DNA of 44,367 nucleotides from the NCBI RefSeq assembly GCF_002113885.1, contig NW_018407210.1, positions 160,926-205,292 of the forward strand, written 5' to 3'. The notes beneath the pieces are model-generated. The model did not search any database, was not told the origin of the DNA, and saw only the letters and a list, made by a program, of their open reading frames with translations. A program made the translations under genes and the position numbers. Below are positions 8,856 to 32,271 of the stretch, piece by piece (positions within the stretch are counted from its first letter, which is position 1; every line of letters begins with the position of its first letter). The DNA is from Mizuhopecten yessoensis. Taxonomy: Eukaryota.

Positions 8856-8864
8856 TCGCAACCA

Positions 8865-9716: not shown

Positions 9717-9769
9717 TGAAGCCTGTCTGTTTCCACATCAAGTACATTAGAACAGAACACGGTACATAC

Positions 9770-12534: not shown

Positions 12535-13345
12535 TAATTATTTACTCATCTGTCTCATTGAAAATGAGCTATTTGTATTTATTTACTCATCTGTCTCATT
12601 GAGAATGTGCTATTTGTATTTATTTACCCATCTGTCTCATTGAGATGAGCTATTTGTATTTATTTACTCATCTGTATCATTGAGAATGAGCTATTTGCAT
12701 TTATTTACTCATCTGTCTCATTGAAAATCAGCTATTTGTATTTATTTACTAATCTGTCTCATTGAAAATGAGCTATTTGTATTAATTTAACCATCCGTCT
12801 CATTGAGCATGAGCTATTTGTATTTATTTACACATCTGTCTCATTGAAAATGATCTATTTGTATTTATTTACTCATCTGTCGCATTGAGAATGAGCTATT
12901 TGTTTTTTTTTCCCCGCCTGTCTCATTGAGAATGAGCTTTTTGTTTTTTTTTCCCCGCCTGTCTCATTGAGAATGAGCTTTTTGTTTTTTTTTCCCCGCC
13001 TGTCTCATTGAGAATGAGCTTTTTGTTTTTTTTTCCCCGCCTGTCTCATTGAGAATGAGCTTTTTGTTTTTTTTTCCCCGCCTGTCTCATTGAGAATGAG
13101 CTATTTGTTTTTTTTTCCCCGCCTGTCTCATTGAGAATGAGCTTTTTGTTTTTTTTTCCCCGCCTGTCTCATTGAGAATGAGCTTTTTGTTTTTTTTTCC
13201 CCGCCTGTCTCATTGAGAATGAGCTATTTGTATTTATTTACTCATCTGTCTCATTGAAAATGAGCTATTTGTATTTATTTACTCATGTCTCATTGAGAAT
13301 GAGCTATTTGTATTTATTTACTCATCTGTCTCATTGAGAATGAGC
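12535..13345. repeat. 41-47 bp tandem repeat (tttactcatctgtctcattgagaatgagctatttgtattta and variant tttttttttccccgcctgtctcattgagaatgagctttttg), ~18 copies
   Basis: Period 41 (12541 to 12582 to 12623); a poly-T/CCCCGCC subvariant block at 12890-13200. Confidence 0.95.
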
Positions 13346-13434
13346 TATTTGTATTTTGAACAGATGTTCATCATTGATATATATACTAAATTTACAAAAA
13401 AACACAATGAAGTATTGGTAATTTGATATTGTAC

Positions 13435-13569
13435 CTGGATGTGTTTGAGGTTGCCATGGTGTTTGGATACCCTGAATCTGTGGATTTGTCCAGGCAGAAA
13501 GTCCCGTTCTTCAGTAACGTGAACCTCCAGCACACAGAAAAAAATCCTCCCTGCACTCTTTACATATTT
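13435..13569 (-). CDS. PARP4: PARP4-like exon 4: KYVKSAGRIFFCVLEVHVTEERDFLPGQIHRFRVSKHHGNLKHIQ
   Basis: tttcag acceptor and CAG|GTACAA donor. Matches human AVVVELQCSRDSRDCPFLISSHF. Confidence 0.6.
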
Positions 13570-13844
13570 CTGAAACAGTAACCAAGCCAGGACATGCAAA
13601 ATAACAAGTACGGTATTTACTTCAGTAAGTGTATATTTATGTTGACTGTCTTTTCATGAGGAACTTGAGTTCTGATCTAATTCATGTGTGTTACATTTGA
13701 GTACCTCTGTATACCCATTTTATATGTTGATAAGGTGTGGATTAAAAAACTATTTACATGGGTGATAATGCAAAATTGTTCCTTAAAGACTTGTAATCAA
13801 ATAAATCATAAGTTACGTTAGGACTGAAGAAGCAACAGTGAATA

Positions 13845-14710
13845 CCCAAGATATAATAAATTACATGTAACCCTGCCCCGATATAATAAATTACGTGTAA
13901 CTCTGCCCACATATAATAAATTACGTGTAACCCTGCCCAGATATAATAAATTACGTGTATCCCTGCCCAGATATAATAAATTACGTGTAACTCTGCCCAG
14001 ATATAATAAATTACGTGTAACCCTGCCCAGATATTATAAATTACATGTAACCCTGCCCAGATATAATAAATTACGTGTACCCCTGCCCAGATATAATAAA
14101 TTACGTGTAACCCGGCCCAGATATAATAAATTACGTGTAACCCTGCCCAGATATAATAAATTACCTGTAACCCTGCCCAGATATAATAAATTACATGTAA
14201 CTCTGCACGGATACAATAAATTACCTGTAACCCTGCCCGGATACAATAAATTACCTGTAACCCTGCCAAGATATAATAAATTACGTGTAACCCTGCCAAG
14301 ATCTAATAAATTACGTGTAACCCTGCCCAGATATAATAAATTACCTGTAACCCTGCCCAGATATAATAAATTACGTGTAACTCTGCCCGGATACAATAAA
14401 TTACCTGTACCCCTGCCCAGATATAATAAATTACATGTAACTCTGCACGGATACAATAAATTACCTGTAACCCTGCCCAGATATAATAAATTACATGTAA
14501 CTCTGCCCGGATACAATAAATTACCTGTAACCCTGCCCGGATACAATAAATTACCTGTAACCCTGCCCAGATATAATAAATTACATGTACCCCTGCCAAG
14601 ATATAATAAATTATGTGTAACCCTGCCCAGATATAATAAATTGTGTGTAACCCTGCCCAGATATAATAAAGTACATGTAACCCTGCCCAGATATAATAAA
14701 TTACATGTTA
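13845..14710. repeat. 30-bp satellite (ataataaattacgtgtaaccctgcccagat), ~29 copies
   Basis: Period 30; this produces the long minus-strand ORFs at 13754..14599. Confidence 0.95.
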
Positions 14711-14773
14711 CCCTGTTTCAAAGCAGATTCTGCAATGCTGGATGTAAACAAGTGATCTTTCTAGCGTTCTCAC

Positions 14774-14913
14774 CTGTAACACAGCATATTTTGCCACCTG
14801 GTATTTGGCGCTGTTGAAAATGGGAGTGTGTTTTTCCTGTAGTGGCCATGCCTTCACTCCCGCTGGATAGAAGGACGACTTCTTCCTCTTACCAAGAATC
14901 TGGTACTTTGTAG
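14774..14913 (-). CDS. PARP4: PARP4-like exon 3: (A)TKYQILGKRKKSSFYPAGVKAWPLQEKHTPIFNSAKYQVAKYAVLQ
   Basis: Phase-compatible with exon 2 (G|CT). CAG|GTGAGA donor. Weak match to the human ..DFEVAKYNTLEK region. Confidence 0.55.
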
Positions 14914-15691
14914 CTATCACAAAAGTAAACACAAAAACCCTTATATCCTTCATCAGCACATTTCAACTTCAAGAACTATTCATAAACTGTTCCATAATGT
15001 TGATAAAAAAATATGTCTGCTTGTTTGTTTCTTCAGGCAGAATAAAAATCAGATATTTGCTTTTAAATGAAGCAATACTTTTCCTTTGGAGAAATCAAAA
15101 TGATTGAAAATTTGTTTCAAGAAGCCAAATGCAGTAACATAAAGGTAAGATATAGCAACATATCTTTGCATAGACAATGAGTACTATTTTCTATGAGTTC
15201 AAATCCAAAACTCACAACCATCTAAATGGTGTGCCCTTGTTTTAAACATTTAACCATCATATGTACGAATAAAACATTAGTTATGAAAGTAAACTAAATA
15301 CTACTACTTAAAATTTGTCTGTAAGGATGCCCTGCTCCTACACTTAAGAAGTAAAGCAAGGTCATAAAAGTCAAGGTCAAAGGTCAAAGCTACAAAAAGT
15401 AATACAGTATCCTGTACTCACAGAGGAGCATTAGCATGTGAAGTGGCATGACCCTAGCTGCAGTAGTTACCACTAAGGCCAAAGAGGTGAAGCTCAAAGT
15501 TGGAAGGTCACAAAATTGCTGTAAAATGTGCTGTACTCACATAGACACATAGTCATGTAAAGTTACATAGCTGAGTTGCAGTGCTTGTAGTCCATAACTG
15601 ATCTAAACACAAAAGCTGAATCAGCTGGAAATATGTAAGTTTGTTTCGCTTATTTGAGGTACATTATGAAACATTTTATATAAATCTTTAC

Positions 15692-15890
15692 CTGCAATTT
15701 TACCAGAGCCAAGTTTCTGAGACCTTGTTTTGCCAATAACCAGGTAATCATCTGAACAAAGTAGTCTCCCTTCCTCCACACAGTCATACAGGAAGGCAAC
15801 GGACACAACGGGGATGCCATACTTCTGGGCCATCTTACGCTTGTAGCTGGTGTCCGCTTTGGCAGGGTCGTTACATACCACATGAGTACT
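15692..15890 (-). CDS. PARP4: PARP4-like exon 2 (BRCT C-terminal half): STHVVCNDPAKADTSYKRKMAQKYGIPVVSVAFLYDCVEEGRLLCSDDYLVIGKTRSQKLGSGKIA
   Basis: cctag acceptor and CAG|GTAAAG donor. Matches human QCTHIILDNADVLSQYQLNSIQKNHVHIANPDFIWKSIREKRLL. Confidence 0.7.
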
Positions 15891-16260
15891 CTAGGAAAAA
15901 TAAGCAGATTTTGTATTTTACAAATGATGTATATTTCTATTTGAATGAAGTTATATGATCGATTTAAGTGTGAACATGAATTTTCTCATAAAAGTACAAT
16001 ATACATTTGTACATGTACATTTCAAACTACTTATCTAAAAGTGTATGCCTAGTTATGAATGAAATTTGGCAAAGGTTTAAAGAAGATTTTATTAAACATT
16101 CTTATTTTTGAAGACCAACCATGACTAAAGAATATTGGCACATGCAATCTGTTTTAGTATAAGGATTTAATTTAGTAAATCAGCACTTTCTAGAGTTGAC
16201 CTTATTTGTAGTACTTTGACTTCTGGGTGCAAACTTGTTACCTGCTTAAAAGCTTCTTAC

Positions 16261-16392
16261 CTTCTTTGTAACAATGTAGGAGACAATCCCGTCATTATCT
16301 GTGATTTTCTTACGGATTTCTTGTTTCTTTTTGAAGCTGACACTTGTTGTTAGGTCAAGGACAACATGGCAACCACCGAATATTGTTGCCAT
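16261..16392 (-). CDS. PARP4: PARP4-like exon 1 (start codon; BRCT N-terminal half): MATIFGGCHVVLDLTTSVSFKKKQEIRKKITDNDGIVSYIVTKK
   Basis: ACCATGG Kozak context. Similar to human PARP4 MVMGIFANCIFCLKVKYL...GGKFSFSL. GTAAG donor after AAG. Confidence 0.7.
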
Positions 16393-17428
16393 GGTGATGT
16401 CTACAACTGTTGATCCCTATGTAGCCTGCTGTCAGTATTTAGGACTCTTTAGTTTGAAGTTGCACACACCAACTAATAATAGTCAAAGGTTTTTAATCTT
16501 AAATGAAGCTCAGCAATTCATCTGTTTATTGAAAAAATGATGAATCTGAAAAATAACAATACCTTTATTGATTACAAATTCAGCATTCTGAACTTTTAGA
16601 GTGTGAAATTGATAGAAAGCACTATAACGTTGGCCTAAAACAAATGCATTGTACATGTATAACTAAAATTCAAAGCTTAAAAACACAAGTGATTCAAAGT
16701 TACATGTGTATCAGCAAAAGAACAGTGTGGGGAAATACTGCCTTACTGCTATAGCTTTAGTTAAGCATGCAACAACAAGCATGGCTATGCAGTGCCTATA
16801 TATTGTAGATGTTATAGGTGGCAATGCTGTGACCCTTGCCGTATCCTGTAAGGCCAGTTCTAGGCGGCTCAGGGAAGGTGCATTAATTGGTACACATGCT
16901 GGGAGGACCCTCAAGATACCTGTACATGTACTTACTTTACAACAATTATGAAACATGTTATTTCCACTTTTATGATGATTACTCACTCTTGTTGGCCTGA
17001 ATGTTAGTGTGCGCGGAGTCTTAATGTGGGAGGAAACCAGAGTACCTGGAGAAAATCCATGTAGTTGGGCAGGTGACCCCATACTTTACAATATAAGGGC
17101 GAAAAACTGCCTCACTCATGCAGGCAAGCTAACTTTTCCAGCTACACAGTATATATATAACTCTGTCCTGTCCGCCATTCACATCTGGTAGCAGTGTAGT
17201 TACCTTGTGGTACATATCATGTAATTTTATAGTAACTCTGGCCAACTCTCAGTGCATGGTTAGGGAACAGCATTGGTACACATGGAATACATAACCTACA
17301 GGATTCCCCAGGTCAAGTCTCCGGATGATAATACTCCGAGGGGAATAGTGCAATAGCCAAAGAATATGTGGGGGAAATACTGCCTTCCTGGTAATTAAGC
17401 TAGCTTCTCCAGTGATGTGGTTTAACCA

Positions 17429-17577
17429 CAGGAGTCTGACGTTTAATTAATATATGTATAATAGTCTATATATAAAAAAATACCCCGTATACTATTTTTT
17501 TTATAGTATACGTGGTATTTTTTTTTTAAATATAGACTATTATATATATATTAATTAAACGTCAGACTCCTGTGGTA
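17429..17577. repeat. ~150-bp near-perfect palindrome (arms ~70 bp: ccacaggagtctgacgtttaattaatatat.tataatagtctatat.taaaaaaataccccgtatactat / its reverse complement)
   Basis: The right arm is the reverse complement of the left arm with 2-3 mismatches, centred near 17503. Confidence 0.9.
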
Positions 17578-18377
17578 CCAGGAAGAGCACCACTTTGACA
17601 TTGTTTCACTGTATGTTCCTTATACATTTCTATTGTTGCTATGGTACAATTTAAGAACCATCGTTAAAAATCAAGCTTCTTAAGCGCGAACTGCAATTTT
17701 AGTTTCATTGTTATACTCTGGTACCAACGTCGAGTGCACTGTGGTGAGAGTTACCCAAGAAAACTTGGATTGGTCTTGGACTCGTCTCTGCCACAAAGTG
17801 CGAGAGGAAATCTAAGCATCAGACATGATCAGTCGTGATCATAAATTTGATTTGTGTCCATGCATGGATAGTCCTGCACAATGTTAACGTAAATGGTGTT
17901 GTCAATGTGCAAATAACATATTAAAGCCAAAGCCATACCTGTAACATTTTTTAGTCACACTTGTCAGCCGCCCCAAAACATTGACAATGCGCATGCGTCA
18001 TACTTCTTCCTTATTCTATTTTTAGAAATGACACGGTGATTCCCCCATGTACAGGGGCTAGTGACAATTACCGCTTATTAAAGCAGCGGATCAGTATTAA
18101 AATATATGAAAAATCGTACAAATAGTGAGTAATTTCTTAAAGTACATGTATACAAATTCATTATTGTTGTATATATATATATTCCGGATATCAGGAATAA
18201 GAATAAGAATCAATATTGAAGTTAGGCTTCGCACCGTTATCTTGAGATATTTATTTTTCAGAACCCTGTGACACAAAATAAGCTATGACACATGCTACGT
18301 ACGTGTATGAGAACACATATTTGAAACCAGGAGCACATGACTCAATATGTGTACGCGTTTAAATGTTGTAGTCGATA

Positions 18378-18381
18378 ATAG
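18378..18381. other. Target-site duplication ATAG (left copy; the right copy is at 25978-25981)
   Basis: The same 4-mer immediately abuts both LTR outer ends. Confidence 0.7.
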
Positions 18382-18562
18382 TGTGGTGTTTGTTGACGTT
18401 CTGTAAGCGTGCGAATGACTGTGAGTGAAGCATGTGAGTGACCTCGAATTGTTCATGCATGTGTTTTGTTCCAAGATAAAAAGTACCCAAGCTGAGATAG
18501 CTGTCCAGTGTTCTATATTTGTGAAGCGTATGTGTGCCGACTGTACTGGTACGAATACAACA
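18382..18562 (+). repeat. 5' LTR (181 bp, tgtggtg...tacaaca)
   Basis: Identical to 25797..25977. The upstream and downstream flanks differ between the two copies. Confidence 0.9.
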
Positions 18563-18563
18563 A

Positions 18564-18581
18564 TGGCGTCACGAGCATTCC
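18564..18581 (+). promoter_or_regulatory. Primer-binding site TGGCGTCACGAGCATTCC, 1 nt after the 5' LTR
   Basis: TGG.. complementary to a tRNA 3' end ..GGAAUGCUCGUGACGCCA. Which tRNA is not determined; it is possibly Arg-like. Confidence 0.6.
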
Positions 18582-19319
18582 CGAGTCTGTTCGCGGAGGT
18601 CATGGATACGCTAGAATCCGAGGAGAATTTCTAGTGGGATTAATACAAGAGACGTAGAATCCCGGGTAGAGGGTGCGCGCCATCTTTGATTGTCTTTTGT
18701 GTGATACACGTGTTTTGTGTTTCACGTTGTCCCAATGTTTATGTTTTGTGTTTAGAGTTGTATCCTGGGTAGAGGGAGCAATTTATTCACAAATTCATTC
18801 GATAGTTGACCCGTGTAGAAGGCCAACTACTGTCTGATACCCTTGCGTGTTTTTAAATAATAAAACAAAAACCAAAAACGAAACAAACGGAAACGGAACG
18901 GTTATCTTAGGACAATAAAAAAATAAAATATTTAGACAACATTTTATTCGTGGTCACGTTGGTTAGGTGCTCTGGTGGCGCTGTACCAATGGTAACTGAT
19001 GTTTGATTAATTTAGTTTCAAGTGTATTCAGTGAGGTAGGTGTTCTGTTGACGCCAGGCTGCTCTGAATATCTATATATATATTTATTAATTTTTTTTTG
19101 CTCGCTGTGGTAGGTGTTCTGTTTGACGCTAACCCTCGAGTATTATTTATATTAAAACCACAGCTAGGGTGTCGGTTGTTTTTCTCTTACTGTTCTAATA
19201 TGCAGTGTGGTGGGTGGTAATTACCGCTACCCCTGTTTAATAGAAATAAATTTTGTAAAAGGATTTGGGTATATTTTTTTTTTTTTTTTCTCTTGTTGTT
19301 TCTGTGTTAACAGATCTAG

Positions 19320-20114
19320 ATGAACAAGCGGTATGCAGGGGTACTGATCGCAGATTCAAGAGCAAATAATTTTCAAAGATTTGGTCATCCAGAGGATTTC
19401 AACATCAAATTTATAATTCAGAGAGGCGCACAAATTCAGGACCTGGTGGCATTATCAATTCCAATCGTTCGGACATTTGAACCATCAAAAACTTTAATAA
19501 TAAAAGTTGCTGCTGGCATTAATGATTTGTTAAAATTGGAACGGGAGCCAGATGGGAAAATTCTAGTACCGTCAGACAGGTCACCGGACAATATTATTGA
19601 AGAACTTTCAGAATTTAGAACACGTGTACAGGTAGTTAGACCATCAAGCCGAGTTAGTTTCATCACCATCCCTCCTGCTTCGTTAAAAGACTTTCAACTT
19701 AATAAATCCTCCAAACCAATTAACCAAAATCTGGTAACAAAATTACAAGAACAACACAATAAAACTGTGTTGGAGGTAAATTCTAGAATTCACCATTTAA
19801 ATAACCAGACAGTGCCAACGGGTTGGACAGTTAAGTGGGCAGATACCATTGTTCACAAACACAAGAAAAGGAGAGGCCGTGCACGGAAAGTGATTACCGC
19901 TTACCGGTATTCCTTTGAACAGTATTACGATGGCTTACATGCCAAATCTGATGTAAAGAAAGAGTGGTACAAACAGGTGGTTTCTGGAATTCGAGGGGAT
20001 ATTACCAAATTGGAAAAACCAGGAAGTGAGATTCGAATTGTCACCACAGAATCTTCAGAAGAGGACACTCCGGTAGACACTGACGATAAAAGTTGGAAGA
20101 GACTTAAACGGTAA
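19320..20114 (+). CDS. ORF0 (264 aa) in the retrotransposon leader: SGNH/GDSL-hydrolase-like (esterase) protein
   Basis: Block I VLIADSRAN (Ser13), block II RGAQ (Gly), block III AAGINDL (GxND), block V YDGLHAKSD (DGxH). Basic KHKKRRGRARK stretch. Confidence 0.7.
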   Translation: MNKRYAGVLIADSRANNFQRFGHPEDFNIKFIIQRGAQIQDLVALSIPIVRTFEPSKTLIIKVAAGINDLLKLEREPDGKILVPSDRSPDNIIEELSEFRTRVQVVRPSSRVSFITIPPASLKDFQLNKSSKPINQNLVTKLQEQHNKTVLEVNSRIHHLNNQTVPTGWTVKWADTIVHKHKKRRGRARKVITAYRYSFEQYYDGLHAKSDVKKEWYKQVVSGIRGDITKLEKPGSEIRIVTTESSEEDTPVDTDDKSWKRLKR

Positions 20115-20129
20115 TTGTAATACGGCAGC

Positions 20130-20230
20130 GGGTTGGTGATCTGTTGTCGCCTTATCCCCTGCACCGTAGAACTCTTAAACGATAAGTTGAGGTTGTGGGT
20201 TGGTGATCTGTTGTCGCCTTATCCCCTGCC
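20130..20230 (+). repeat. Two copies of a 33-bp direct repeat (gggttggtgatctgttgtcgccttatcccctgc) at 20130-20162 and 20198-20230, immediately upstream of the gag ATG
   Basis: Exact duplication separated by 35 bp. Confidence 0.9.
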
Positions 20231-20233
20231 ACA

Positions 20234-21637
20234 ATGACTCGTATAAATTACTGTGAGAGACAAGACCTACTACTATTGCCGGGTATTGGAGAGCGTCTGG
20301 CGGACAAAATTCTACAAGTCCGTGAAGTAATGGGGGACATTACTAAAGAGGTTCTGTTGGCCATTCCATACCTGAGGCCCACAGAGACCATGTTAAACCA
20401 AATAGACTTTACACCGCGATATGAACGGTTTACTGACATGGGTGAGAACTTGACGGGTGAGCATCACACCTACAAAATGGACCCACCACCAAAGGTTCAA
20501 CATCCTTCACCACCACGACTACAAGTTCAAAATCCAGGACCGTATTTTGACAATTATGGGTATCCTGGCAGCCGCCAGAGAGAACATCGACAGCAGTACC
20601 AGTACACTAATTACCGAGACCCATACGAACAGGAATACCACGGTCAGCCCCGTCAACCACAGTTCAACTTTCCACCTCCAAGGTACAATCCGGGGAATCC
20701 GCCGCCAAGACGTGGACGGGTGGTAGCTCCCAAGACGTTACGCTATGATGGAAACTCCGATTGGAAAGCTTTTTGCACAAAGTTTACTAGATTCACTGAG
20801 GCGGAGAATCTTACTGCTCGTGAATGTCGGGATAACCTTTGCTGGATACTGGAGGGCAAAGCTAGTGAGTTTTTCACTATGCTCTTGGATCGTGATTCAA
20901 CGATGGAATTTTTCGATATCATGTCAAAAATGGAACGCCGTTTTGGATTCAAGGAGCTGGCCGAGACTACCCAAGCACGCCTTCGTAACGCCCGACAGTA
21001 CCCTGACGAGAAGCTAGCAGATTGGGCTGATCGGGTGTTATCTTTAGCTACCAGAGCCTATCAGGATCTGCCCGATGAGTTTATGTATAAACAAGCGATC
21101 TCCACAATTTGCCAGGGAGCAGCAGATAAAGAAGCAGGCCAATATGTTTCTAACCTAAGATTGGGATCTATTGAGGAAGTGGTGGACAAGATGAGACTTT
21201 TTCAACATACAAGAAAGTCTATCTATGGTCGCGACCGTCCTAGACCTTCGCCTGTCGAAGAACTAATCATACAAGAGGAAGAAGGTACTAGTGTCAGCAG
21301 GACATTCCAGCGTAGAGTCCCAAATTCTCAGTCCTCATTCCAGCCATCTTCAGCAACAAACCAAAGGCTGTCAGCCCTAGAAGACAAGGTATCGGACATG
21401 CAAAAATCCCTTAAACAAATTTTGGAGGCTGTTCGTGTCCCAGAGGAAAGGATCAAAAGGAATGTGGTTTGTTATGGTTGTGGCCAGACAGGCCATTTTA
21501 AGTCGAACTGTCCTAATGCTGAAGATAATAAATCTGTGAAACTCCTGGATGCGGCTGAAAAGACTGAAGGTGAAGAAGTAGTCCCTGGATCTGAAGAAGT
21601 TGAGGACTCGTTAAACACCGACAGGTCGGCCAACTAG
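20234..21637 (+). CDS. gag: gag (467 aa): N-terminal HhH motif (LLLPGIGERLADKIL), Gln/Pro/Tyr-rich linker, capsid-like region, CCHC zinc knuckle (CYGCGQTGHFKSNC)
   Basis: CX2CX4HX4C motif at 21469..21510. Sits upstream of pol within the LTR element. Confidence 0.85.
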   Translation: MTRINYCERQDLLLLPGIGERLADKILQVREVMGDITKEVLLAIPYLRPTETMLNQIDFTPRYERFTDMGENLTGEHHTYKMDPPPKVQHPSPPRLQVQNPGPYFDNYGYPGSRQREHRQQYQYTNYRDPYEQEYHGQPRQPQFNFPPPRYNPGNPPPRRGRVVAPKTLRYDGNSDWKAFCTKFTRFTEAENLTARECRDNLCWILEGKASEFFTMLLDRDSTMEFFDIMSKMERRFGFKELAETTQARLRNARQYPDEKLADWADRVLSLATRAYQDLPDEFMYKQAISTICQGAADKEAGQYVSNLRLGSIEEVVDKMRLFQHTRKSIYGRDRPRPSPVEELIIQEEEGTSVSRTFQRRVPNSQSSFQPSSATNQRLSALEDKVSDMQKSLKQILEAVRVPEERIKRNVVCYGCGQTGHFKSNCPNAEDNKSVKLLDAAEKTEGEEVVPGSEEVEDSLNTDRSAN

Positions 21638-24600
21638 ACCTAAGCCCGACCTTAGATGTTAAAAATGGTCTTCATCCTACACGGTCAACAATTACACCAG
21701 ATGACCTTATCAGTGAGGTAATGACTGATAACACCACCGAATCAACCCGTGTTGAACTTGATAATATTACCCGATTACGGTCAACATCCATGTTTCAAGT
21801 GCCTGTTATCGTGGGAGGTTTTCATACAAGAGCAGTGGTGGATACCGGTGCTGAAGTATCAATCATATCGGATGAGGTATACAAAAACCTTGTTGAGCCA
21901 CCCTCGATATTGAAACATGTGACACTTAATGCAGCAGGCAGAGATCAACCAATTGAGAGCTATATTGTTGGACCCATCGAACTAGATATAGGATCTAAGA
22001 GTTACAAGGTTAGCATTTATGTTGGACCAATTGAAGATGATATCTTGCTGGGTCTGGACTTTCTGAAGCCCAATAATGCTCAACTTGACATTTCAGGGGA
22101 TACTCTTACCCTGGGTATTGGTGGAGAGAAAATTTCAGTGAACACAGGAAAAGAATTTTTACCTGCTTCCGAAGGCAAGGTATATGTACAGAAACGGACT
22201 GTAGTACCACCGAACAGTGTAGCAAGAGTGTGTTGTCGAATTTCCGGAAAGGTAGGCAGTTCTAGTCTAATTGTGGAGCCTACAGTAGAAAATGGACTAC
22301 TAATTCCGAGATCATTGTATGACACAGCCTCGCAGATCAGGTTGTACTGTGTGAATGTCACGGACAGAAATATAATTCTGAAAAGGAAAACGGAAATTGC
22401 GATAGTCAATGAGGCAAGAGAAATTATTGCGAATGTTGAAAGTCATGCGGATCCCATATTTGTGGAGACATTACGCTGTGGCGAGGAAACACCGGACATT
22501 GCGCCTTCGCATGTACAGAGTCTCATTGATGGCGCGAAAGAACAGTTGTCGGTTGAGGAGTTAAGTCAATTTGCTCAACTTATTAAGGATAATTCCGATG
22601 TTTTTGCGAAAAATGACTTTGACCTGGGACATTTTAGTGCTATCAAACACAATATTGATACAGGTACGGCACGGCCGATAAAGCAACGTTTTCGCAGAAC
22701 GCCAGCATGTTTTGCCAACGAAGAGGATTTGCATCTAAAGAAGATGCTAGATTCTGGAGTTATCGAATCCTCTACATCCGAGTGGGCGTCAGCACCAGTG
22801 CTGATCCGTAAACGTGACGGCGGAGTGCGCTGGTGCATAGATTATCGGGGACTGAACTCGGTAACTACTAAAGACGTGTTTCCATTACCGTTAATAGAAG
22901 AATGCCTCGACGCATTGACCGATAACGTGTGGTTTTCGAAACTAGATGCCAACTCGGCTTATTGGCAAGTCCTTGTCAATGAATCGGACAGACATAAGAC
23001 TGCCTTCAGTACAAAACACGGATTGTTTCAGTTTGTCAAAATGGGATTCGGACTTTGTAACGCCCCAGCAACTTATGCCAGAGTAATGAACCTGGTTCTT
23101 CGTGGATTAACATGGAACATTGTTCTTGCCTTCCTGGACGATGTGTTGGTTCTTGGGAAGACCTTCGATGAGCATCTCCAAAATCTAGCAGAAGTCTTTG
23201 AGCGCATCAGGGCGTATCAACTGAAACTCAAACCCGCTAAGTGCGAATTCTTTAAAAAGAAGGTTGACTTCTTAGGGCGAACAGTTAGTGAAAGTGGCAT
23301 TGAAACCAGTGGCAAACACATCGAAAAGATGAAGGAGTGGCCAACACCAACATCATCTAAGGATGTTGAGCAATTCTTGGGGTTTGCCAACTACCATCGC
23401 TCATTTATTCCCGAATATGCCAAAATTGCAGCTCCTCTGTACCAATTGACAGGAAAGAATGACTTTCGGTGGGATGAGGAACAGGAAAAAGCATTTTCCA
23501 GCTTAAAATCTTCCCTGAGTTCTCCACCTGTTTTGGGAATACCGAATAACAGCGATATGTTTGTGCTCGACACAGACGCATCTGACTTTGCTATTGGTGG
23601 TGAGTTGTGCCAAATTCAAGAAGGCAAGGAAAGAACAATAGCTTATGCTAGTTATTCCCTGACATCAGAACAGCGTCGCTATTGTACAACAAGAAAAGAA
23701 CTTTTGGCAGTAGTTCGCTTTACCAGACAGTTTCGCCATTATCTGCTTGGTCGCAAGTTTGTGGTGAGAACTGATCACAACAGTTTGGTTTGGTTGCTCA
23801 ACTTCAAAAATCCCCAAGGACAACTGGCGAGATGGCTTGAAGAGTTAAGCCAGTATGATCTAACTATTGTACACCGAAAAGGAAAAGACCATCAAAATGC
23901 TGACAGTCTCTCCCGGAGTCTACCAAAAGACCAGTGCGGAAACTTGAAACATGGGCAAGATCCTACCACGTTACCATGCGGAGGATGTGCCTATTGTACT
24001 CGGGCTCATGAACATTGGCATCAGTTTATCTCTGATGTGGACGAGGCGGTCTCTCTAAGTAACATACCCTGCGTACAAAAAGTAACCCAGTCTGACAATA
24101 CTTTCGCCGTGGAAGGAAGTCTATATAGCGAGAATTTGACCATAGAAGTGTCTGCTTTTGGAATAAATATCCTCACTAGATCTGAAAGGAGTGATATTGA
24201 AGACATGAACGTCAACGCCTTGGATATTCAATTCTCGGGTTACTCGGCAAAGGAAATCCGGACTGCTCAGGAGCAAGATCCAGAGTTATCTATACTGCTA
24301 GAGTGGGTAAAGAATAAGAAAGAGGTGGACGAAGGAGAACTGTTTGGATCCAGTAGAGCCATAAAGTATTACTGGATTAACCGTGAGTTATACTTCCTGG
24401 ATGAGTCTGGTATATTGTGGAGGAAGGATCTAGAAGACACTAGCAAAACTCAATCCTTGGTTATACCTCCCAGTATGAGAGAAGACGCTATTTCTTTGTG
24501 CCATGACATCCCGGCTAGCGCTCATCAGGGAATCAACCGAACAGAATCCATGGTTCGCCAGAGGTTCCATTGGTATGGCTTGCCTCGCGACGTTCAAAAG

Positions 24601-25746
24601 TTCGTGAAATCCTGTGTCATCTGCAACACCAAGAAAAAAGCCAGTCGAAAGGCTCGATGCCCGTTGACTCTTTTCCAATCAGGGGAACCCATGGAAAGAG
24701 TTCATCTTGACTTCTTGGGCCCACTACCCATAACAGCAACAGGAAATGAACACATATTAGTTATGGTAGACCAGTTTACCAAATGGGTTGAATGTGTTCC
24801 CTTACCTTCGCAGACCGCCGCGACAACCGCAAAAGCAGCTGTAAACGAATTCTTCGCGAGATTTGGATATCCGTTCCAAATTCATACAGACCAAGGTAGA
24901 AACTTTGAAAGTCGTCTGTTTAAAGCTTTGTGTGAAGTTACGCAAATTCATAAAACTCGTACAACGGCTTATAGACCTTCTGCCAATGGACAAGTGGAGA
25001 GGTATAATCGCACCATCATGAACGCAGTTCGATGCTTCATAAACTCTCAAAGTGAATGGGACATCTATTTACCACAGCTAGCTGGCGCGCTAAGGTGTTC
25101 CGTAAACCGCCAAACTGGACATACCGCCAACAAGTTAATGCTGGGCCGGGAGACCAATCAGCCTGCAGATCTCTTGTATGCCGCTCCATCGAACAAGAAG
25201 GCGAAGGACTCTCGCGACTCTGAAAGTTATGTGGACAATTTGGTAGATGCAATTCAGCGTGCCCATGAAACCGCCAGAAAAACCCTTGCCACAACGCAGA
25301 GGAGAATGAAACGTGATTACGATGTTCGCGTTTACACTACCGAGTTCATTGAAGGGGATGTGGTCTACGTCTTCGACAATGCAACGCCTAAGGGACAAAA
25401 TCCCAAGTTAAAGGCCGTTTGGAAAGGTCCTGGACTCATAGTCAAAAAGTACACGCCGTACGTCTATGGAGTACAGATGGGGAAGACGCGACAAGTCATT
25501 AATCACGATCGATTAAAAATGTGTAATGACCGTAAGCGACCCCAATGGATAATCGATCTCCAGGAGCACCGAGCGGAACCGGTAGAGGAAACCCACTGTG
25601 TCTGCCATCAAACGGATGATGGGACCATCATGATCCAGTGTGACTTTTGTTTTGTGTGGTTCCATGGACGTTGTGTGGGCTTAAATGTAGAGGAAGCCGA
25701 ACAGCTGGAACTTTATTGCTGTACTACGTGTGAACAATCTGTATAA
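21604..25746 (+). CDS. pol: pol (frame open from 21604; first ATG at 21721): protease (VDTGAEVS), RT (FSKLDANSAYWQV; FLDD), RNase H (VLDTDASDFAIGG), integrase (HHCC + DDE + GPY/F), C-terminal PHD-type zinc finger
   Basis: Domain order PR-RT-RH-IN means Ty3/gypsy. It is in the -1 frame relative to gag with a 34-nt overlap. Confidence 0.9.
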   Translation, partial: GLVKHRQVGQLDLSPTLDVKNGLHPTRSTITPDDLISEVMTDNTTESTRVELDNITRLRSTSMFQVPVIVGGFHTRAVVDTGAEVSIISDEVYKNLVEPPSILKHVTLNAAGRDQPIESYIVGPIELDIGSKSYKVSIYVGPIEDDILLGLDFLKPNNAQLDISGDTLTLGIGGEKISVNTGKEFLPASEGKVYVQKRTVVPPNSVARVCCRISGKVGSSSLIVEPTVENGLLIPRSLYDTASQIRLYCVNVTDRNIILKRKTEIAIVNEAREIIANVESHADPIFVETLRCGEETPDIAPSHVQSLIDGAKEQLSVEELSQFAQLIKDNSDVFAKNDFDLGHFSAIKHNIDTGTARPIKQRFRRTPACFANEEDLHLKKMLDSGVIESSTSEWASAPVLIRKRDGGVRWCIDYRGLNSVTTKDVFPLPLIEECLDALTDNVWFSKLDANSAYWQVLVNESDRHKTAFSTKHGLFQFVKMGFGLCNAPATYARVMNLVLRGLTWNIVLAFLDDVLVLGKTFDEHLQNLAEVFERIRAYQLKLKPAKCEFFKKKVDFLGRTVSESGIETSGKHIEKMKEWPTPTSSKDVEQFLGFANYHRSFIPEYAKIAAPLYQLTGKNDFRWDEEQEKAFSSLKSSLSSPPVLGIPNNSDMFVLDTDASDFAIGGELCQIQEGKERTIAYASYSLTSEQRRYCTTRKELLAVVRFTRQFRHYLLGRKFVVRTDHNSLVWLLNFKNPQGQLARWLEELSQYDLTIVHRKGKDHQNADSLSRSLPKDQCGNLKHGQDPTTLPCGGCAYCTRAHEHWHQFISDVDEAVSLSNIPCVQKVTQSDNTFAVEGSLYSENLTIEVSAFGINILTRSERSDIEDMNVNALDIQFSGYSAKEIRTAQEQDPELSILLEWVKNKKEVDEGELFGSSRAIKYYWINRELYFLDESGILWRKDLEDTSKTQSLVIPPSMREDAISLCHDIPASAHQGINRTESMVRQRFHWYGLPRDVQKFVKSCVICNTKKKASRKARCPLTLFQSGEPMERVHLDFLGPLPITATGNEHILVMVDQFTKWVECVPLPSQTAATTAKAAVNEFFARFGYPFQIHTDQGRNFESRLFKALCEVTQIHKTRTTAYRPSANGQVERYNRTIMNAVRCFINSQSEWDIYLPQLAGALRCSVNRQTGHTANKLMLGRETNQPADLLYAAPSNKKAKDSRDSESYVDNLVDAIQRAHETARKTLATTQRRMKRDYDVRVYTTEFIEGDVVYVFDNATPKGQNPKLKAVWKGPGLIVKKYTPYVYGVQMGKTRQVINHDRLKMCNDRKRPQWIIDLQEHRAEPVEETHCVCHQTDDGTIMIQCDFCFVWFHGRCVGLNVEEAEQLELYCCTTCEQSV

Positions 25747-25782
25747 GTGTGAACTGACTCCACAGTATACAGGGACTTCTAT

Positions 25783-25796
25783 AAAAGAGGGAGGAA
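25783..25796 (+). promoter_or_regulatory. Polypurine tract AAAAGAGGGAGGAA, immediately 5' of the 3' LTR
   Basis: Purine run abutting the LTR start TGTGG. Confidence 0.75.
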
Positions 25797-25977
25797 TGTG
25801 GTGTTTGTTGACGTTCTGTAAGCGTGCGAATGACTGTGAGTGAAGCATGTGAGTGACCTCGAATTGTTCATGCATGTGTTTTGTTCCAAGATAAAAAGTA
25901 CCCAAGCTGAGATAGCTGTCCAGTGTTCTATATTTGTGAAGCGTATGTGTGCCGACTGTACTGGTACGAATACAACA
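25797..25977 (+). repeat. 3' LTR (181 bp)
   Basis: Identical to the 5' LTR. Confidence 0.9.
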
Positions 25978-26799
25978 ATAGGTAGCTCGCCGGAGGTAGC
26001 ACAGGAGTTTGACAGTATATCAATATAATAGTCTAGATGAATGGGGTATTTTTTCATCTGGACTTTTGTATTATATTGATATAATTTCGAACATAACAGA
26101 AAAGAATTACTCACAATTGCTGCAATGCCCTTCAAAGTCAATATATATTATACTTAATCATCAGTATTGATCGATGAAAAGCTGATGAAGATGAAGTCAG
26201 TCATTTCAGACCAGCTGTTATAATCACTGAAATCAGTCATGTAGTTTTTGAGGAATTTTGTTTCAGTCCTCGTTAATTTTAATTTGGTACTTTTATACCA
26301 TTGGACCCCTGTCCCACAGCTGTCTGTGTTGTTCCCTATATATATACCTATACTATACAATTGCCTTGCTAGCTCCACTTAATTTCGGCTTGGGTTGTTT
26401 TGCCAGGACACTTCCGCTGACCAGGTATAATAGCTCATTCGGTCAGAATGAAAGTATACGATGTAAGTCCATGGTTTAAATCCAAGTTTAGCCTGAATGT
26501 TTAAATGTACTCGGTCAGAACACTCCTGTTGATTACAAGTAAATTTTGTTTGTTTCATCATGATTATTTCTCAAAAAAGTCCTGCAAGATAGGATTTTCT
26601 TTTCAGAAATGATATATCAAAGCTTCACATGATGCCTGAAAAGACAGTTTTTTTAAGTACTTAAGTACAGTTTTGGCAGAGAACTCTTTGGAAGTACCAA
26701 AACATACCGTGTCCTGTGTAATAACCAACAAACCAAGCCAGCAAGCTAAGCTGACCCAAATCAATTAACCTTGAATAACTACAAATTCATTCCTGTTTG

Positions 26800-27240
26800 C
26801 GAAATTTATAGTACTCCATGTCTGCAAGCTACGGCCTTAACACTACAAGTCTATAGGCCTGTTATTTCTTCAAAAGACGTTGTTAGGATGTTTTATAATA
26901 TTTGACCCCGAGACCTTGAATATAGGTTAAGGTAATTTCTTTTCACAAAATTTGTAACATTCCATCTCAGCAAGCTATTTGCCATATATCTATCATGACT
27001 GTAAGTCTTTCAATTCTTCATAAGAAGTTGTTTAAGCATTTTAACAAATTTGATTCTTTTGACCTTGTTTCTAGGTCAAGGTTATTTTTGTTATTAAACT
27101 TGTTGTACTTCATGCCTGCAAAATACTGGCCAAATAGTATTTTGAGTTCTTCACTCAGAAGAAGAATCTTGAAGTTTTTCCCCATACCTGACCCCGGTTA
27201 CCTTGAAAAGATTGCAGGTTTTAATCATCACAGGGAGCTA
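26800..27240. repeat. Degenerate ~150-bp tandem repeat x3 (..tgcaagcta..ttcttca.aaga..ttgacc..)
   Basis: Three diverged units with shared cores; the ORF at 26995..27258 is repeat read-through. Confidence 0.55.
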
Positions 27241-27794
27241 CAAACTGATGGTTCTTAAGAAGACATGTAAATGAAAAGCTGAAGGACAACATATCATGGT
27301 GGCAGCCACACCACAAAATCAACTTGCATGAGACCCGTTGGGCTGAAAATGTTTCTCTCTTCCCGGTGTGTTTAAATCAATGTTGATTGTTCATTTCACA
27401 CATGATACATGTACATTTTTGTTTTACCATACAGCAATTTCAACAACAGAACAAGTAACTGAGTTCAAGATTTATTCAACAATTTCATGAATTTATAATA
27501 CATAAGTTACTACATACACAAATGTATGTATGATTACAAAATATATAGTAGTGGCCTACACAGGTGAAATGAATTATTTAATATTGCAAAAGTTATTTCT
27601 CTTGAAACAGTCAAATTAGATGTTTCAGAAACCAATTTGCTCTCATTACTTTGTACAGCTGTAACAGAAATTCAAAGGTGAAGTTTGATAGAATTCATAA
27701 ATAACTGAGGAAGAAATTTTCTAATCATTAAAATGAAAAAAAGTGTGAATTTGTTTAATGCACCAATCTTCATGTTGTATACATTTACACAAGT

Positions 27795-28705
27795 CTTTGG
27801 AGCAGTATACCAGTAACTAGTTACCACTAGGACAGATTGTGTCTCCCTCTGTCACCCTTCACACACATCCATGGAGCAGTATACCAGTAACTAATTACCA
27901 CTAGGACAGATTGTGTCACACTCTGTCACACTTCACACACATCCATAGAGCAGTATACCAGTAACTAATTACCACTAGGACAGATTGTGTCACACTCTGT
28001 CACACTTCACACACATCCATGGTGCAGTATACCAGTAACTAGTTACCACTAGGACAGAGTGTTTTACACTCTGTCACACTTCACACACATCCATGGAGCA
28101 GTATGCCAGTAACTAGTTACCACTAGGACAGATTGTGTCACCCTCTGTCACACTTCACACACATCCATGGATCAGTATACAAGTAACTAGTTACCACTAG
28201 GACAGATTGTGTCACCCTCTGTCACACTTCACACACATCCATGGATCAGTATACCAGTAACTAGTTACCACTAGGACAGATCGTGTCACACTCTGCCACA
28301 CGTCACACACATCCATGGAGCAGTATACCAGTAACTAATTACCACTAGGACAGATTGTGTCACACTCTGTCACACTTCACACACATCCATGGTGCAGTAT
28401 ACCAGTAACTAGTTACCACTAGGACAGAGTGAGTCACACTCTGTCACACTTCACACACATCCATGGTGCAGTATACCAGTAACTAGTTACCACTAGGACA
28501 GATCGTGTCACACTCTGCCACACGTCACACACATCCATGGAGCAGTATACCAGTAACTAATTACCACTAGGACAGATTGTGTCACACTCTGTCACACTTC
28601 ACACACATCCATGGTGCAGTATACCAGTAACTAGTTACCACTAGGACAGATTGTGTCACACTCTGTCACACTTCACACACATCCGTGGAGCAGTTTACAA
28701 ACACA
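27795..28705. repeat. 74-bp satellite (ccatggagcagtataccagtaactagttaccactaggacagattgtgtcacactctgtcacacttcacacacat), ~12 copies
   Basis: Period 74 (27871 to 27945 to 28019). Confidence 0.95.
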
Positions 28706-29712
28706 CATCACCCTAACAAATTGAATCACATTTTCTATCAGACTTTACCAGTATCATATACATAGGAAACTCATATGACTATTTTTATATTAAGGAAAGT
28801 GGAAAATTTCAACTATGATTTCCCCTTCAGGTATATATACTGTACATGAACATACAATATTTTTAAGGTTTCACAATTATATCAATAATATTATTGTCTC
28901 TAAAACATCAATTTCCAATTTGTTCTTTGTATGTTGCACATGAATCTATAAACATATTTCTGTATCAATGTACAAAGAAGCAAAAGTATTGTAATCTTTC
29001 TTTACTACATCATTCTATTGTCTCCCTTTGACCACTGCTCATTGGTGGGTTGTTAAAAACACCCTGCTCAGATCACAAAACTTAACAGAGCACTATTAGT
29101 GCTATTTTGCAGTTTCTCATATAAATCAAGGGTTTGAAATGAATGAAAATGATAAAGGAAATGGTTTTCTCCTTTCACATATGTGTTACATCTTTCTGAA
29201 AGCACTAACAATGACTCAAACTAACGGGCGCAAAAGAGTTCCTGTATGGCATATGCATTGATAGGCCAGGAAAATACCAATGTTAGCATATTTGTAACAA
29301 TTAATATACAGCTCCCTGGTTTTCCAAAATGTTTTCACATTTTACAAGGAAAACACTTTTAAAACTAAATTGTAACAGAAAATACAATTGAAAGTTGCAT
29401 GTCACAGGTTTTCTCAACTACTTCTACTCAACATTGACAACCACAATCCTCTCCATCCAGAACAATGTTACAAAGCACCGTCTGAGCCAGTGGATTGCCG
29501 GAGCTTACTTATGTTAAGCCTCATCTCTTACTAGGTTAACCTTGGTCAGCAATCTTCATGTTTAATGGCATCAGGAGGGCAGCCATCCTTTTGAGCTCTG
29601 ACTAAGGGCGGGTAATTCTTTTACAGTTAAAACTCTTTATATTCAAAGGCGTCCATTAAAATGTCAAGTCTATAGTTGCTTGTATCACAATGAAGTTGAT
29701 GACTTATGGTGA

Positions 29713-29751
29713 TCAATTCCGTAACTTTGCAAGTCGCTGCGTAAGCTCGTC
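29713..29751 (-). CDS. CHMP1: CHMP1-like last coding exon: DELTQRLAKLRN*
   Basis: ttttcag acceptor and TGA stop. Matches human CHMP1B DELSQRLARLRDQV*. Confidence 0.7.
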   Translation of the reverse strand, partial: DELTQRLAKLRN

Positions 29752-30027
29752 CTGAAAAAGAGAATATTAACTTGAATTACGCTGGTACAAGTAAGGTATG
29801 ACCGGTAAATTCATTAAGTATTACCAAAAGTGGCTATAATGACACACGTAGAATAGGCAGTACATTGAAGTTGTTTATTTCATTTACAGAGGAGATTTGA
29901 CATAATATAAACTTGTTTTTACAACTTATATAAATCACTCTTGTTGGCCAAGATGTTAGCTTGCTGGGGTTCTTAATTGACTTGACATATTAAGGTATGC
30001 TAACTAAAAGACCTGACAGAAACCTAC

Positions 30028-30109
30028 CTGTTCATTACTAGCATTTGATGAGGCTACTCCAGAAGGTAAGGAGGACTGCGCTGATGGAAGGTCCATGTTT
30101 AATTCCAAA
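30028..30109 (-). CDS. CHMP1: CHMP1-like exon: (G)LELNMDLPSAQSSLPSGVASSNASNEQ
   Basis: tgttacag acceptor and CAG|GTAGGT donor. Matches CHMP1B LDLNMELPQGQTGSVGTSVASAEQ. Confidence 0.75.
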
Positions 30110-30539
30110 CTGTAACAGTAAACACGATACATTTTAACTACAATACATTATGTAAAGATAGCTAGACAAGATTCATATATTTTATTTTTTTTACAAAAAA
30201 TTGCTGCTTTTTCCTGACACTCATGGACAGATGTATATAAGTACTGAAATGAAAATCCAACTATTTACAATATCATATTTTTTTAATTTTGATTCATTGT
30301 ATGTGCCAGCCAATAAATGCAACATGCTACCATTCAAAGACCTATAGTTCAACCTCTACCTGAAGTTATTTCCATGATATGTAATATACATTTCTTTTAA
30401 TTCATCATAAAAATGCAACAATGTGTCTTTGAAATAGCATGTAAAGTAGATAAGTAACTTAAAGGAACTGTTCAACATCATGGTTAATCTCAGGAAAATG
30501 TAAGTAGCCTTCTTTGGTGTTCATAGTAACTGAACATAC

Positions 30540-30691
30540 CCAGCCTCATCAGCGACCTCCTGCATCAGTCCCTCCACCTGTGTCTGGGGGGTGTTGAGGG
30601 TGGACGATGCATTCATTGTGTCTTCCATCACCTGTGACTGCACATCCAGATTCTCAAACTGTTGTTCAAACCGGTCCATCAACTGTGAGAT
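30540..30691 (-). CDS. CHMP1: CHMP1-like exon: ISQLMDRFEQQFENLDVQSQVMEDTMNASSTLNTPQTQVEGLMQEVADEA(G)
   Basis: Matches CHMP1B ISALMDKFEHQFETLDVQTQQMEDTMSSTTTLTTPQNQVDMLLQEMADEAG. ttgaacag acceptor and GG|GTATGT donor. Confidence 0.85.
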
Positions 30692-31689
30692 CTGTTCAAA
30701 AAAGTATGATTATATCTAAATTAAATCTGAAGGACAACACAACGTCAATAAGCTACAATTTTTAATTGTATCAGTTAATGAACCGTTCCTATCTCTATGT
30801 ACTGGATCATAACACCAAGAGTACATTACACTCACTGACACTAGTACACATTGCCATGTAAGATTCCTTCTGTTCTACCTTTGCCTCCAAATTCTTCTTT
30901 TTCATGAGTGTTTACTGTGCATAATGTAATACAGAAGTAATATGCTAGCAGTACACTGGTTGGAGCATTGACAACTTGCAATGACCTTGACCTTTGGTCA
31001 ATGGGGTATGACACAGAAAGTCTTAGGATACACTCTAGTCATGGCATACTAACTTATTAAGTTAAAACAAAATGTGCTGATATGAAATAAGCATTTGACC
31101 TTTGAGACAAAAAGCTTTGTCCTTAGGACTACTGACCTGAAAGTGCTACACGAATTACTGGAACATCTAGTCATGACATGCACAATATTTTATTTCAAAA
31201 CAAAATGCTATGCCGATCAGTTACAGTCTGGAAAAACATTTGACCTTTTAACCTTTAATAAGACCTTGACCTTTGGGATATAGACCTGAGAGTGCTAGGT
31301 GATATACCTTTAAGTCAAAACATGAACATCTACTTGAAGTGATATCTTGAAGTGATCAAAAGATAGGGACTGAACAAGGTGTACAAGGACAGACACATAT
31401 ACATCCCTTTACTTTATGGGGAAGTGGTGGGAGGTATAATTGTATGACCTTAAATAATTGTGATGAAATAATAGAGACAACTAACCTGAATTTACACTCA
31501 TTAACTTTATTAGAAACAGTATCCAGATGTCAATCTATCATAATAAAAGAAAAGAACAAGAGATCCAGTAGGCCTGCATTGCTCACCTAGTATTAATATC
31601 ACATTTGTAACCTTAAAAGGGATCTAAAATAAAGCTACAGACAAAATATCAGTCTTTATGACTACAAGTCATTCAGAAGAACCTGTTAA

Positions 31690-32192: not shown

Positions 32193-32202
32193 CTAGACCT
32201 AC

Positions 32203-32271
32203 TTTCTCCAGATTCATACTCTTCATTGCTGATTCCATAGACTTGACCACACCTGCCATGGAACCTGTCAC
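32203..32271 (-). CDS. CHMP1: CHMP1-like exon: VTGSMAGVVKSMESAMKSMNLEK
   Basis: Matches CHMP1B VTKSMAGVVKSMDATLKTMNLEK. ttgacag acceptor and AAA|GTAGGT donor. Confidence 0.8.

Follow-up and report, generated by a model that had tools for sequence, protein, structure and literature searches.

An intact, apparently young Ty3/gypsy element with a predicted 5′ SGNH hydrolase and a PHD finger on its integrase lies upstream of a PARP4-like gene in Mizuhopecten yessoensis

Esterase and PHD domains were reportedly described by Kapitonov and Jurka in 2003 in ORF1p, the first open reading frame (ORF) protein of CR1/L2-type elements. The ORF1p esterase of long interspersed nuclear elements (LINEs), seen in the ZfL2-1 structure, is active and binds phospholipids (PMC3905857), and SGNH/GDSL ORFs are known in the Vesta and Athena retroelements of bdelloid rotifers, a type of ORF common to unrelated lineages (PMC5408684). 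At the C-terminus of gypsy integrases, chromodomains direct integration to chromatin methylated at lysine 9 of histone H3 (H3K9me) (Gao et al. 2008, as cited), and a tether engineered from the ING2 PHD finger redirected integration of human immunodeficiency virus 1 (HIV-1) towards transcription start sites (TSSs), as summarised in a review (PMC8149907). Surveys have noted fusions of PHD fingers with retrotransposons, for which the general rationale proposed is evasion of host suppression (bioRxiv 10.1101/2021.11.30.470311). The element described here is of a known kind but of unusual make-up, with a predicted SGNH hydrolase cistron (ORF0) at its 5′ end, a helix-hairpin-helix (HhH) motif in Gag and a PHD finger on the integrase. 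It occupies positions 18382-25977 of a 44,367-bp stretch of the Mizuhopecten yessoensis genome (NCBI RefSeq assembly GCF_002113885.1, contig NW_018407210.1, positions 160,926 to 205,292, forward strand; hereafter the window). It is very likely a complete, intact and young Ty3/gypsy retrotransposon, inserted between two copies of ATAG at 1990 bp upstream of the start of a PARP4-like gene, with the life cycle proposed below. The initial annotation of the locus is confirmed in what it observed, and its interpretation is supported.

The protease, reverse transcriptase, RNase H and integrase (PR-RT-RNaseH-IN) follow one another in pol in the order of the Ty3/gypsy class, and on this basis the element is a gypsy-type long terminal repeat (LTR) retrotransposon, as had been proposed. 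Pfam matches in pol are, in order, gag-asp_proteas, RVT_1 (E 5.7e-29), RT_RNaseH (E 6.5e-33), Integrase_H2C2, rve and PHD, and those in gag are Retrotrans_gag and zf-CCHC, the zinc knuckle being of the form CX2CX4HX4C. All of the catalytic motifs are readable (DTG in the protease, FLDD in the reverse transcriptase, DAS in the RNase H, and HHCC with D, D and E in the integrase). There is no stop codon or frameshift in the 6216 coding nucleotides of ORF0, gag and pol, such that the frames annotated as uninterrupted (467 amino acids for gag and more than 1340 for pol) are indeed open over 264, 467 and 1341 amino acids, respectively. Pfam detects no chromodomain at the C-terminus of the integrase, where a PHD finger is found instead, and no env-like ORF is present 3′ of pol, the stop codon of which (25746) is followed by the polypurine tract at 25783.

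The exact ORF0, gag and pol proteins have no match in a collection of 15 billion sequences. Relatives of pol number 887, the best of which is only 60% identical, and those that could be named are from two bivalves (Ostrea edulis and Pinctada imbricata), the brachiopod Lingula anatina and the gastropod Elysia marginata. The HhH motif at the N-terminus of Gag (LLLLPGIGERLADKIL) gives a sub-threshold match to HHH_3 (E 2e-3) and recurs in the related elements L001 (E 6e-4) and L004 (E 2e-4), and also in the gag of L007 and L008. The latter two have a PHD-bearing pol (52% identical) and an HhH-gag, are without the 5′ SGNH ORF, and 3′ of pol encode a TatD_DNase domain in a further ORF (12605-13843 in L007; 154-2319 and 11160-11837 in L008). 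These TatD-like ORFs suggest that accessory enzyme genes are swapped in modular fashion within this gypsy lineage. In a further relative of pol (P0091, from a JGI metagenome, 56% identity) a TPT1/KptA RNA 2′-phosphotransferase (PF01885) is fused to RT-RNaseH-IN-PHD.

The limits of the element were established from a repeat search of the window, which found a direct repeat of 183 nt with 100% identity (18382-18564 and 25797-25979), and from reading of the sequence. The final two nucleotides of the repeat (AT) are a chance match between the spacer before the primer-binding site (PBS) and the target-site duplication (TSD), so the LTRs proper are 181 bp in length and the element measures 7596 bp. 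The two LTRs differ at 0 of 181 positions; the count had been called for in the initial annotation, where they were described as base-for-base identical. The ATAG duplication is present on both sides, the PBS begins 1 nt from the 5′ LTR and the polypurine tract (PPT) abuts the 3′ LTR; the duplication and the correct placement of PBS and PPT had been noted. An alternative 5-bp TSD, AATAG, would require an LTR ending in ...AC. Putative TATA-like (GATAAAAAG, 18475-18483) and initiator-like (CCAGT, 18505-18509) motifs were found by eye in the 5′ LTR, with a transcription start predicted near 18507. BLAST with the element and its proteins revealed no second copy, fragment or solo LTR elsewhere in the window; a 30-nt LTR probe matches the two LTRs only, and the flanks are unique within the window. 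One remark does not hold: the LTR was thought to be unusually short for this class, but the LTRs of the Steamer-like element MchSLE1 of a mussel are 185 bp (PMC11046912), and a length of 181 bp is not unusual for gypsy elements of marine invertebrates. The coordinates of all features are given in Table 1.

Table 1 Features of the element, its surroundings and its relatives. Positions are those of the window unless stated otherwise.
Feature	Position	Strand	Details
Target-site duplication, left	18378-18381	+	ATAG; read from sequence; matches 25978-25981
5′ LTR	18382-18562	+	181 bp, TG...CA; 100% identical to 3′ LTR
Primer-binding site	18564-18581	+	TGGCGTCACGAGCATTCC; starts 1 nt after 5′ LTR; begins TGG
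Hairpin motif, four copies upstream of ORF0	18966-18982, 19039-19055, 19113-19130, 19213-19228	+	6-bp GGTGNN-loop-NNCGCY
ORF0	19320-20114	+	264 amino acids; open reading frame; SGNH/GDSL-hydrolase fold predicted
ORF0 motifs	ORF0 residues D12-S13-R14, G36, G66-I-N68, D204-G-L-H207		Each after the expected strand of the model
Hairpin motif, two exact 33-nt copies	20130-20162, 20197-20229	+	Second ends 4 nt before gag ATG
gag	20234-21637	+	467 amino acids; open frame; HhH at amino acids 4-38, capsid-like region at 206-292, CCHC knuckle at 412-428
-1 ribosomal frameshift signal (predicted)	21610-21652	+	Slippery G_UUA_AAC, 6-nt spacer, 7-bp stem
pol frame	21604-25746	+	-1 relative to gag; first ATG 21721 (1341 amino acids); protease, RT, RNase H, integrase (zinc finger and DDE core), PHD
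PHD finger	25597-25731	+	pol amino acids 1293-1337, integrase C-terminus; Pfam PHD E 1.6e-6
Polypurine tract	25783-25796	+	AAAAGAGGGAGGAA; 14 nt, purines only; abuts 3′ LTR
3′ LTR	25797-25977	+	181 bp; repeat search and reading of sequence
Target-site duplication, right	25978-25981	+	ATAG; read from sequence
Predicted empty-site sequence			...GTCGATAATAG / GTAGCTCGCC... with a single ATAG
Hairpin motif in relative L001	93-109, 997-1013 of L001		
Hairpin motif in relative L004	1-20, 999-1014, 1070-1086 of L004		
First coding exon of PARP4-like gene (context, outside element)	16261-16392	-	ATG 16392; GT donor after 16261
Minisatellite arrays	1-198, 1577-1683, 1912-3215, 3737-4134, 7027-7591, 7952-8830, 9108-9712, 10246-10726		
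Minisatellite arrays, continued	12538-13356, 13849-14715, 27798-28698, 40182-40550, 44019-44364		

The PBS is complementary to a transfer RNA (tRNA) 3′ end ...GACGCCA, which by eye is perhaps Ser- or Asn-like. ARAGORN found no tRNA genes in the window.

From 21604, which is 34 nt ahead of the gag stop, the pol frame is open, and this overlap contains a predicted -1 ribosomal frameshift signal of the conventional type. The slippery heptamer G_UUA_AAC (21610-21616) is in the gag frame and is followed by the stem AGGUCGG/CCGACCU (21623-21629 and 21646-21652), which in the centroid structure holds the gag stop codon in its loop. In the two relatives for which sequence is available, the canonical U_UUA_AAC is found at the same place, again with 6 nt between it and a stem of 7 bp, and the first pair of the stem varies (AU, GC and CG) across the three elements. 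Two properties speak against the signal: the heptamer begins with G and so breaks the strict X_XXY_YYZ rule, and the minimum-free-energy fold of the region is ordinary when compared to shuffled sequences (z = -0.7). Support for the stem comes from its conservation in the relatives and not from folding energy. GUUAAAC is the functional slippery site of equine arteritis virus, where G is a tolerated variant of the first position.

The PHD finger at the C-terminus of the integrase is, on alignment, of the sequence type found in readers of trimethylated lysine 4 of histone H3 (H3K4me3). The Cys4-His-Cys3 zinc ligands are present when aligned with PHF2 and CFP1, and the best matches in the PDB are PHF2 (E 1e-11), CFP1, KDM7A, BPTF, PHF8, EBS, ING2, Spp1, DIDO1 and TAF3, all of which are H3K4me3 readers. 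The domain (PF00628) is carried by nearly all of the best 100 of the 887 pol relatives. In 99 relatives the cage positions are strongly conserved, with Tyr or Phe in 97, Met in 97 and Trp in all 99. By analogy with the chromodomains of other gypsy integrases, we infer that the PHD finger could direct integration to promoters, and an insertion 2 kb from a gene start fits such targeting, but is a single case. The argument for PHD-guided targeting is made up of this one site and the analogy, and the present copy, while it keeps the Met and Trp, has a His before the first Cys where the family has Tyr or Phe; these points lessen the case for promoter targeting.

They are also what lends weight to a possible alternative, in which the PHD finger does not guide integration and instead recruits or blocks host chromatin factors at the provirus to counter silencing, the proximity to the PARP4-like promoter being coincidental. 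With only one insertion site and a cage residue replaced in this copy, such a role would agree with the evasion of host suppression proposed in the surveys of fusions between transposable elements and PHD fingers (bioRxiv 10.1101/2021.11.30.470311). The alternative is less easily reconciled with the location of the PHD finger, which is fused to the integrase C-terminus at the place where chromodomains direct targeting in chromoviruses, and with the finding, as the review summarises it, that HIV-1 integration can be redirected to TSSs by nothing more than a PHD tether (PMC8149907).

ORF0 probably encodes a divergent and catalytically active SGNH hydrolase, based on a structural model and on conserved motifs. 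The AlphaFold2 model (predicted local distance difference test score, pLDDT, 75; predicted template-modelling score, pTM, 0.72) shows the flavodoxin-like SGNH fold, and the fold search was the sole informative search for this protein. The candidate Ser-Asp-His and oxyanion residues, in the blocks typical of SGNH hydrolases (Ser in block I, Gly in II, Asn in III and Asp-x-x-His in V), are conserved among 73 relatives, down to approximately 19% identity: S13, G66 and H207 are found in all 73, D12 and G36 in 72 and D204 in 71, while position 68 is N in 46 and C in 27. A word-seeded search detected 11 homologues, one of which is from Holothuria leucospilota, and a profile search reached 797 cluster representatives with a cut-off of E <= 1e-3, or 318 with E <= 1e-10; almost without exception these are stand-alone proteins of 230-290 amino acids.

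The order ORF0-gag-pol recurs in L001/L002, L005 and L003. In L001/L002, ORF0 lies directly 5′ of gag, followed by a PHD-bearing pol; L004 consists of ORF0 and the start of gag, and L006, a separate contig from the same sample, of the end of gag and a PHD-bearing pol. The ORF0 homologue in L005 precedes a gypsy pol that lacks the PHD finger, and that in L003 precedes a gag with DUF7041, such that ORF0 homologues stand before at least three different gag-pol types. The notion that ORF0 is a separate element nested in the leader is rejected on the strength of this gene order and of the hairpin motif (see below) shared with relatives that are only 41-60% identical.

The enzymatic assignment has points against it. 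ORF0 has no Pfam match; its profile detects nothing significant among PDB sequences and no SGNH protein; Lipase_GDSL (PF00657) is matched by only 2 of the 73 relatives, and weakly (E ~6e-4); and the evidence for an esterase consists of a medium-confidence model together with motifs. The matches of the profile to TASOR and haemagglutinin in the PDB are noise (E > 0.2). There are two basic segments in the protein, an insertion (HKHKKRRGRARK / HKHKKRRGRARKV; amino acids 178-190, window 19851-19889) shared with the closest homologues, and a C-terminal tail, WKRLKR (WKRxK; amino acids 255-264, window 20082-20111), which is kept in them; each resembles a patch for nuclear localisation or nucleic-acid binding that has been appended to the SGNH fold. 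It is conceivable, though unlikely, that ORF0 is not an enzyme and is a nucleic-acid- or protein-binding domain that has kept the SGNH fold and serves in assembly of the ribonucleoprotein or in nuclear import. The OSK domain of Drosophila Oskar is a parallel for such a protein, the basic insertion and the conserved tail would suit it, and it would be consistent with the lack of any Pfam esterase family above threshold. The conserved motif residues listed above are the evidence on the side of an active SGNH hydrolase, which is the reading retained here.

The non-coding part of the element contains a repeated hairpin motif of approximately 35 nt, roughly CAGTGTGGTnGGTGnn-CTGTn-nnCGCCnnnCCCCTG. 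The strict hairpin pattern has six matches in the 44-kb window, all of them in the 876 non-coding nucleotides of the element, while shuffles of these nucleotides give 0.007 matches. The motif also precedes the starts of ORF0 and gag in L001 and L004, the proteins of which are 41-60% identical to those of the present element, and it is absent from the examined relatives that do not have the combination of ORF0 and PHD. Over 11 instances pair 5 is CG, TA, GC or AT and pair 4 changes once from GC to AT; because of this covariation the motif likely folds, as RNA or as single-stranded DNA. No Rfam family was found in the element, the single match (E 0.48) being due to chance. Roles as splice donor, initiator or TSS, packaging signal or site of reinitiation were considered for the motif; the candidate splice sites do not keep a consistent position from one relative to the next. 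Sequences resembling 5′ splice sites (GTAGGT or GTGGGT) occur within the upstream copies, and at 19280-19322 a run of 16 T, a pyrimidine tract and AACAG 6 nt before the ORF0 ATG resemble a 3′ splice acceptor, the candidate site being 19311-19315. Splicing may be involved in the expression of ORF0 or gag.

That the insertion is very recent, as was first suggested, is supported by three independent signs: the identity of the LTRs, the intact frames and the ratio of observed to expected CpG (CpG o/e), although the age is only loosely bounded. The CpG o/e is 0.82 in the element versus 0.39 and 0.33 in the 10-kb flanks (8382-18381 and 25978-35977, respectively), and the GC content is 44% versus approximately 35% outside; the element has been spared the CpG decay that marks its strongly CpG-depleted host surroundings. 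The absence of differences between the LTRs gives a divergence per lineage of <0.83% (95% Poisson bound; 1.66% pairwise), which corresponds to an age ceiling of approximately 1-8 million years for an assumed rate between 1e-8 and 1e-9 per site and year. Of the single substitutions possible in the 6216 coding nucleotides, 880 would create a stop codon and none is seen, which bounds the neutral divergence at approximately 1%, and with an indel-to-substitution ratio of 0.1-0.2 the bound from the coding frames falls to approximately 0.3-0.4%.

Some caution is in order on two counts: zero differences over 181 bp is a weak clock, and the signs of youth speak for a recent arrival and not for present activity, which the initial annotation had considered possible. 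The LTR clock is also coarse, a single difference being equal to 0.55%, and the limit of approximately 1% LTR divergence set in the initial annotation resolves little. It is very improbable that this is an older copy, with LTRs homogenised by gene conversion or a locus that is the assembler's consensus of a multi-copy family, in which LTRs and ORFs would seem perfect, since, weak as identity over only 181 bp per LTR is as evidence, the flanks are unique and the 4-bp TSD clean, the 6216 coding nucleotides are without stop or frameshift (neutral divergence bound roughly 0.3-1%), and gene conversion of the LTRs would not account for the contrast in CpG o/e between the element (0.82) and its flanks (0.33-0.39).

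The minus-strand gene to the left of the element is PARP4-like by its domains: the joined exons match Pfam BRCT (E 3.6e-13) and the PARP catalytic domain (E 1.2e-20), and a VIT or vWA part, if present, would fall beyond the end of the window. PARP4 has an N-terminal BRCT domain followed by the PARP domain. The exons of the gene match two BRCT fragments at 65-67% identity. The gene is arranged head-to-head with the element, and the 1990 bp that separate its ATG from the 5′ LTR agree with the approximately 2 kb given in the initial annotation. An exon-like ORF on the plus strand (42480-42875) matches Pfam Npa1 (ribosome 60S biogenesis N-terminal; URB1-like; E 2.3e-15), which together with the minus-strand PARP4-like gene places the element between two divergent genes, the PARP4-like gene being much the closer. 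A palindromic segment of approximately 155 bp, 88% self-complementary (17425-17576), lies between the PARP4-like ATG and the element and may be a hairpin repeat or resemble a miniature inverted-repeat transposable element (MITE). Minisatellite arrays are many and long in the window, with periods of 23-141 bp and up to 34 copies; they are located mostly in apparent introns of the PARP4-like gene and produce spurious long repetitive ORFs.

In the life cycle proposed for the element, transcription would begin in the 5′ LTR, Gag would be translated and Gag-Pol would be made through -1 frameshifting at G_UUA_AAC. A tRNA bound at the PBS and the PPT would serve as primers of reverse transcription, and the complementary DNA (cDNA) would be inserted by the integrase. 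The C-terminal PHD finger may tether the intasome to H3K4me3 nucleosomes and so bias insertion to active promoters, as chromodomains bias chromoviruses to H3K9me chromatin. For ORF0 the most likely role would be esterase activity towards lipids or acetylated substrates while particles are assembled or trafficked, a role like that proposed for the LINE ORF1p esterases, and the hairpin motif before each start codon is a candidate cis element for the expression of ORF0 and gag from one RNA.

There is nothing unusual in the insertion itself, which is that of a young transposon copy. An effect on the PARP4-like promoter, at a distance of 2 kb, is nevertheless conceivable, and if the insertion is polymorphic it would point to a family that is mobile at present. 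A wider interpretation is offered tentatively and may well prove wrong: the element would represent a lineage of Ty3/gypsy retrotransposons of marine invertebrates that has an integrase steered to promoters by an H3K4me3-reading PHD finger, the opposite of the chromovirus strategy, together with an active 5′ SGNH esterase and hairpin-controlled expression of ORF0 and gag. If this were true, the hairpin would be a new translational or processing control element. The make-up of the element provides a natural test of whether having a PHD finger in place of a chromodomain retargets integration to promoters, which so far has been shown only with engineered HIV tethers. The SGNH family of ORF0, invisible to Pfam and comprising approximately 800 clusters, adds to the association of retroelements with esterases, which recurs and has yet to be explained, and both the compact, conserved frameshift signal and the covarying hairpin motif are directly assayable.

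The open-access literature yielded no description of a gypsy clade of molluscs or other invertebrates in which the integrase bears a PHD finger or an SGNH ORF is located at the 5′ end, an absence that is weak evidence. The element shares features with the Steamer-like MchSLE1 of Mytilus chilensis, likewise a Ty3/gypsy element of a marine invertebrate, which combines a tRNA PBS and a PPT with very short LTRs (185 bp, compared to 181 bp in the present element); MchSLE1, however, is 4758 bp in length and has a single gag-pol ORF, without ORF0 and with no reported PHD finger (PMC11046912), whereas the present element is 7596 bp and has three ORFs and a predicted -1 frameshift. By type of ORF, it is comparable to the Vesta LTR retrotransposons of bdelloid rotifers, in which an SGNH/GDSL ORF likewise stands apart and keeps its catalytic residues (Rodriguez, Kenefick, Arkhipova 2017, PMC5408684). 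In Vesta the esterase is ORF3, located 3′ of pol and not 5′ of gag as here (PMC5408684), and unlike this GDSL ORF3 the present ORF0 family is too divergent for Pfam. Ngaro elements also possess an additional ORF for an SGNH hydrolase, the function of which is unproven, but use a tyrosine recombinase, have split direct repeats and place the SGNH ORF after the recombinase gene (PMC9210276). The CR1/L2-type non-LTR elements combine an SGNH esterase and a PHD finger, as the present element appears to, with both in ORF1p (PMC3905857); here, by contrast, the element has LTRs, the predicted esterase is an ORF of its own and the PHD finger is carried by the integrase. The fusion itself has its counterpart in the chromoviruses, such as MAGGY, in which the Ty3/gypsy integrase likewise ends in a reader of histone marks; this reader is a chromodomain in chromoviruses and a PHD finger here, with active promoters rather than heterochromatin as the predicted target.

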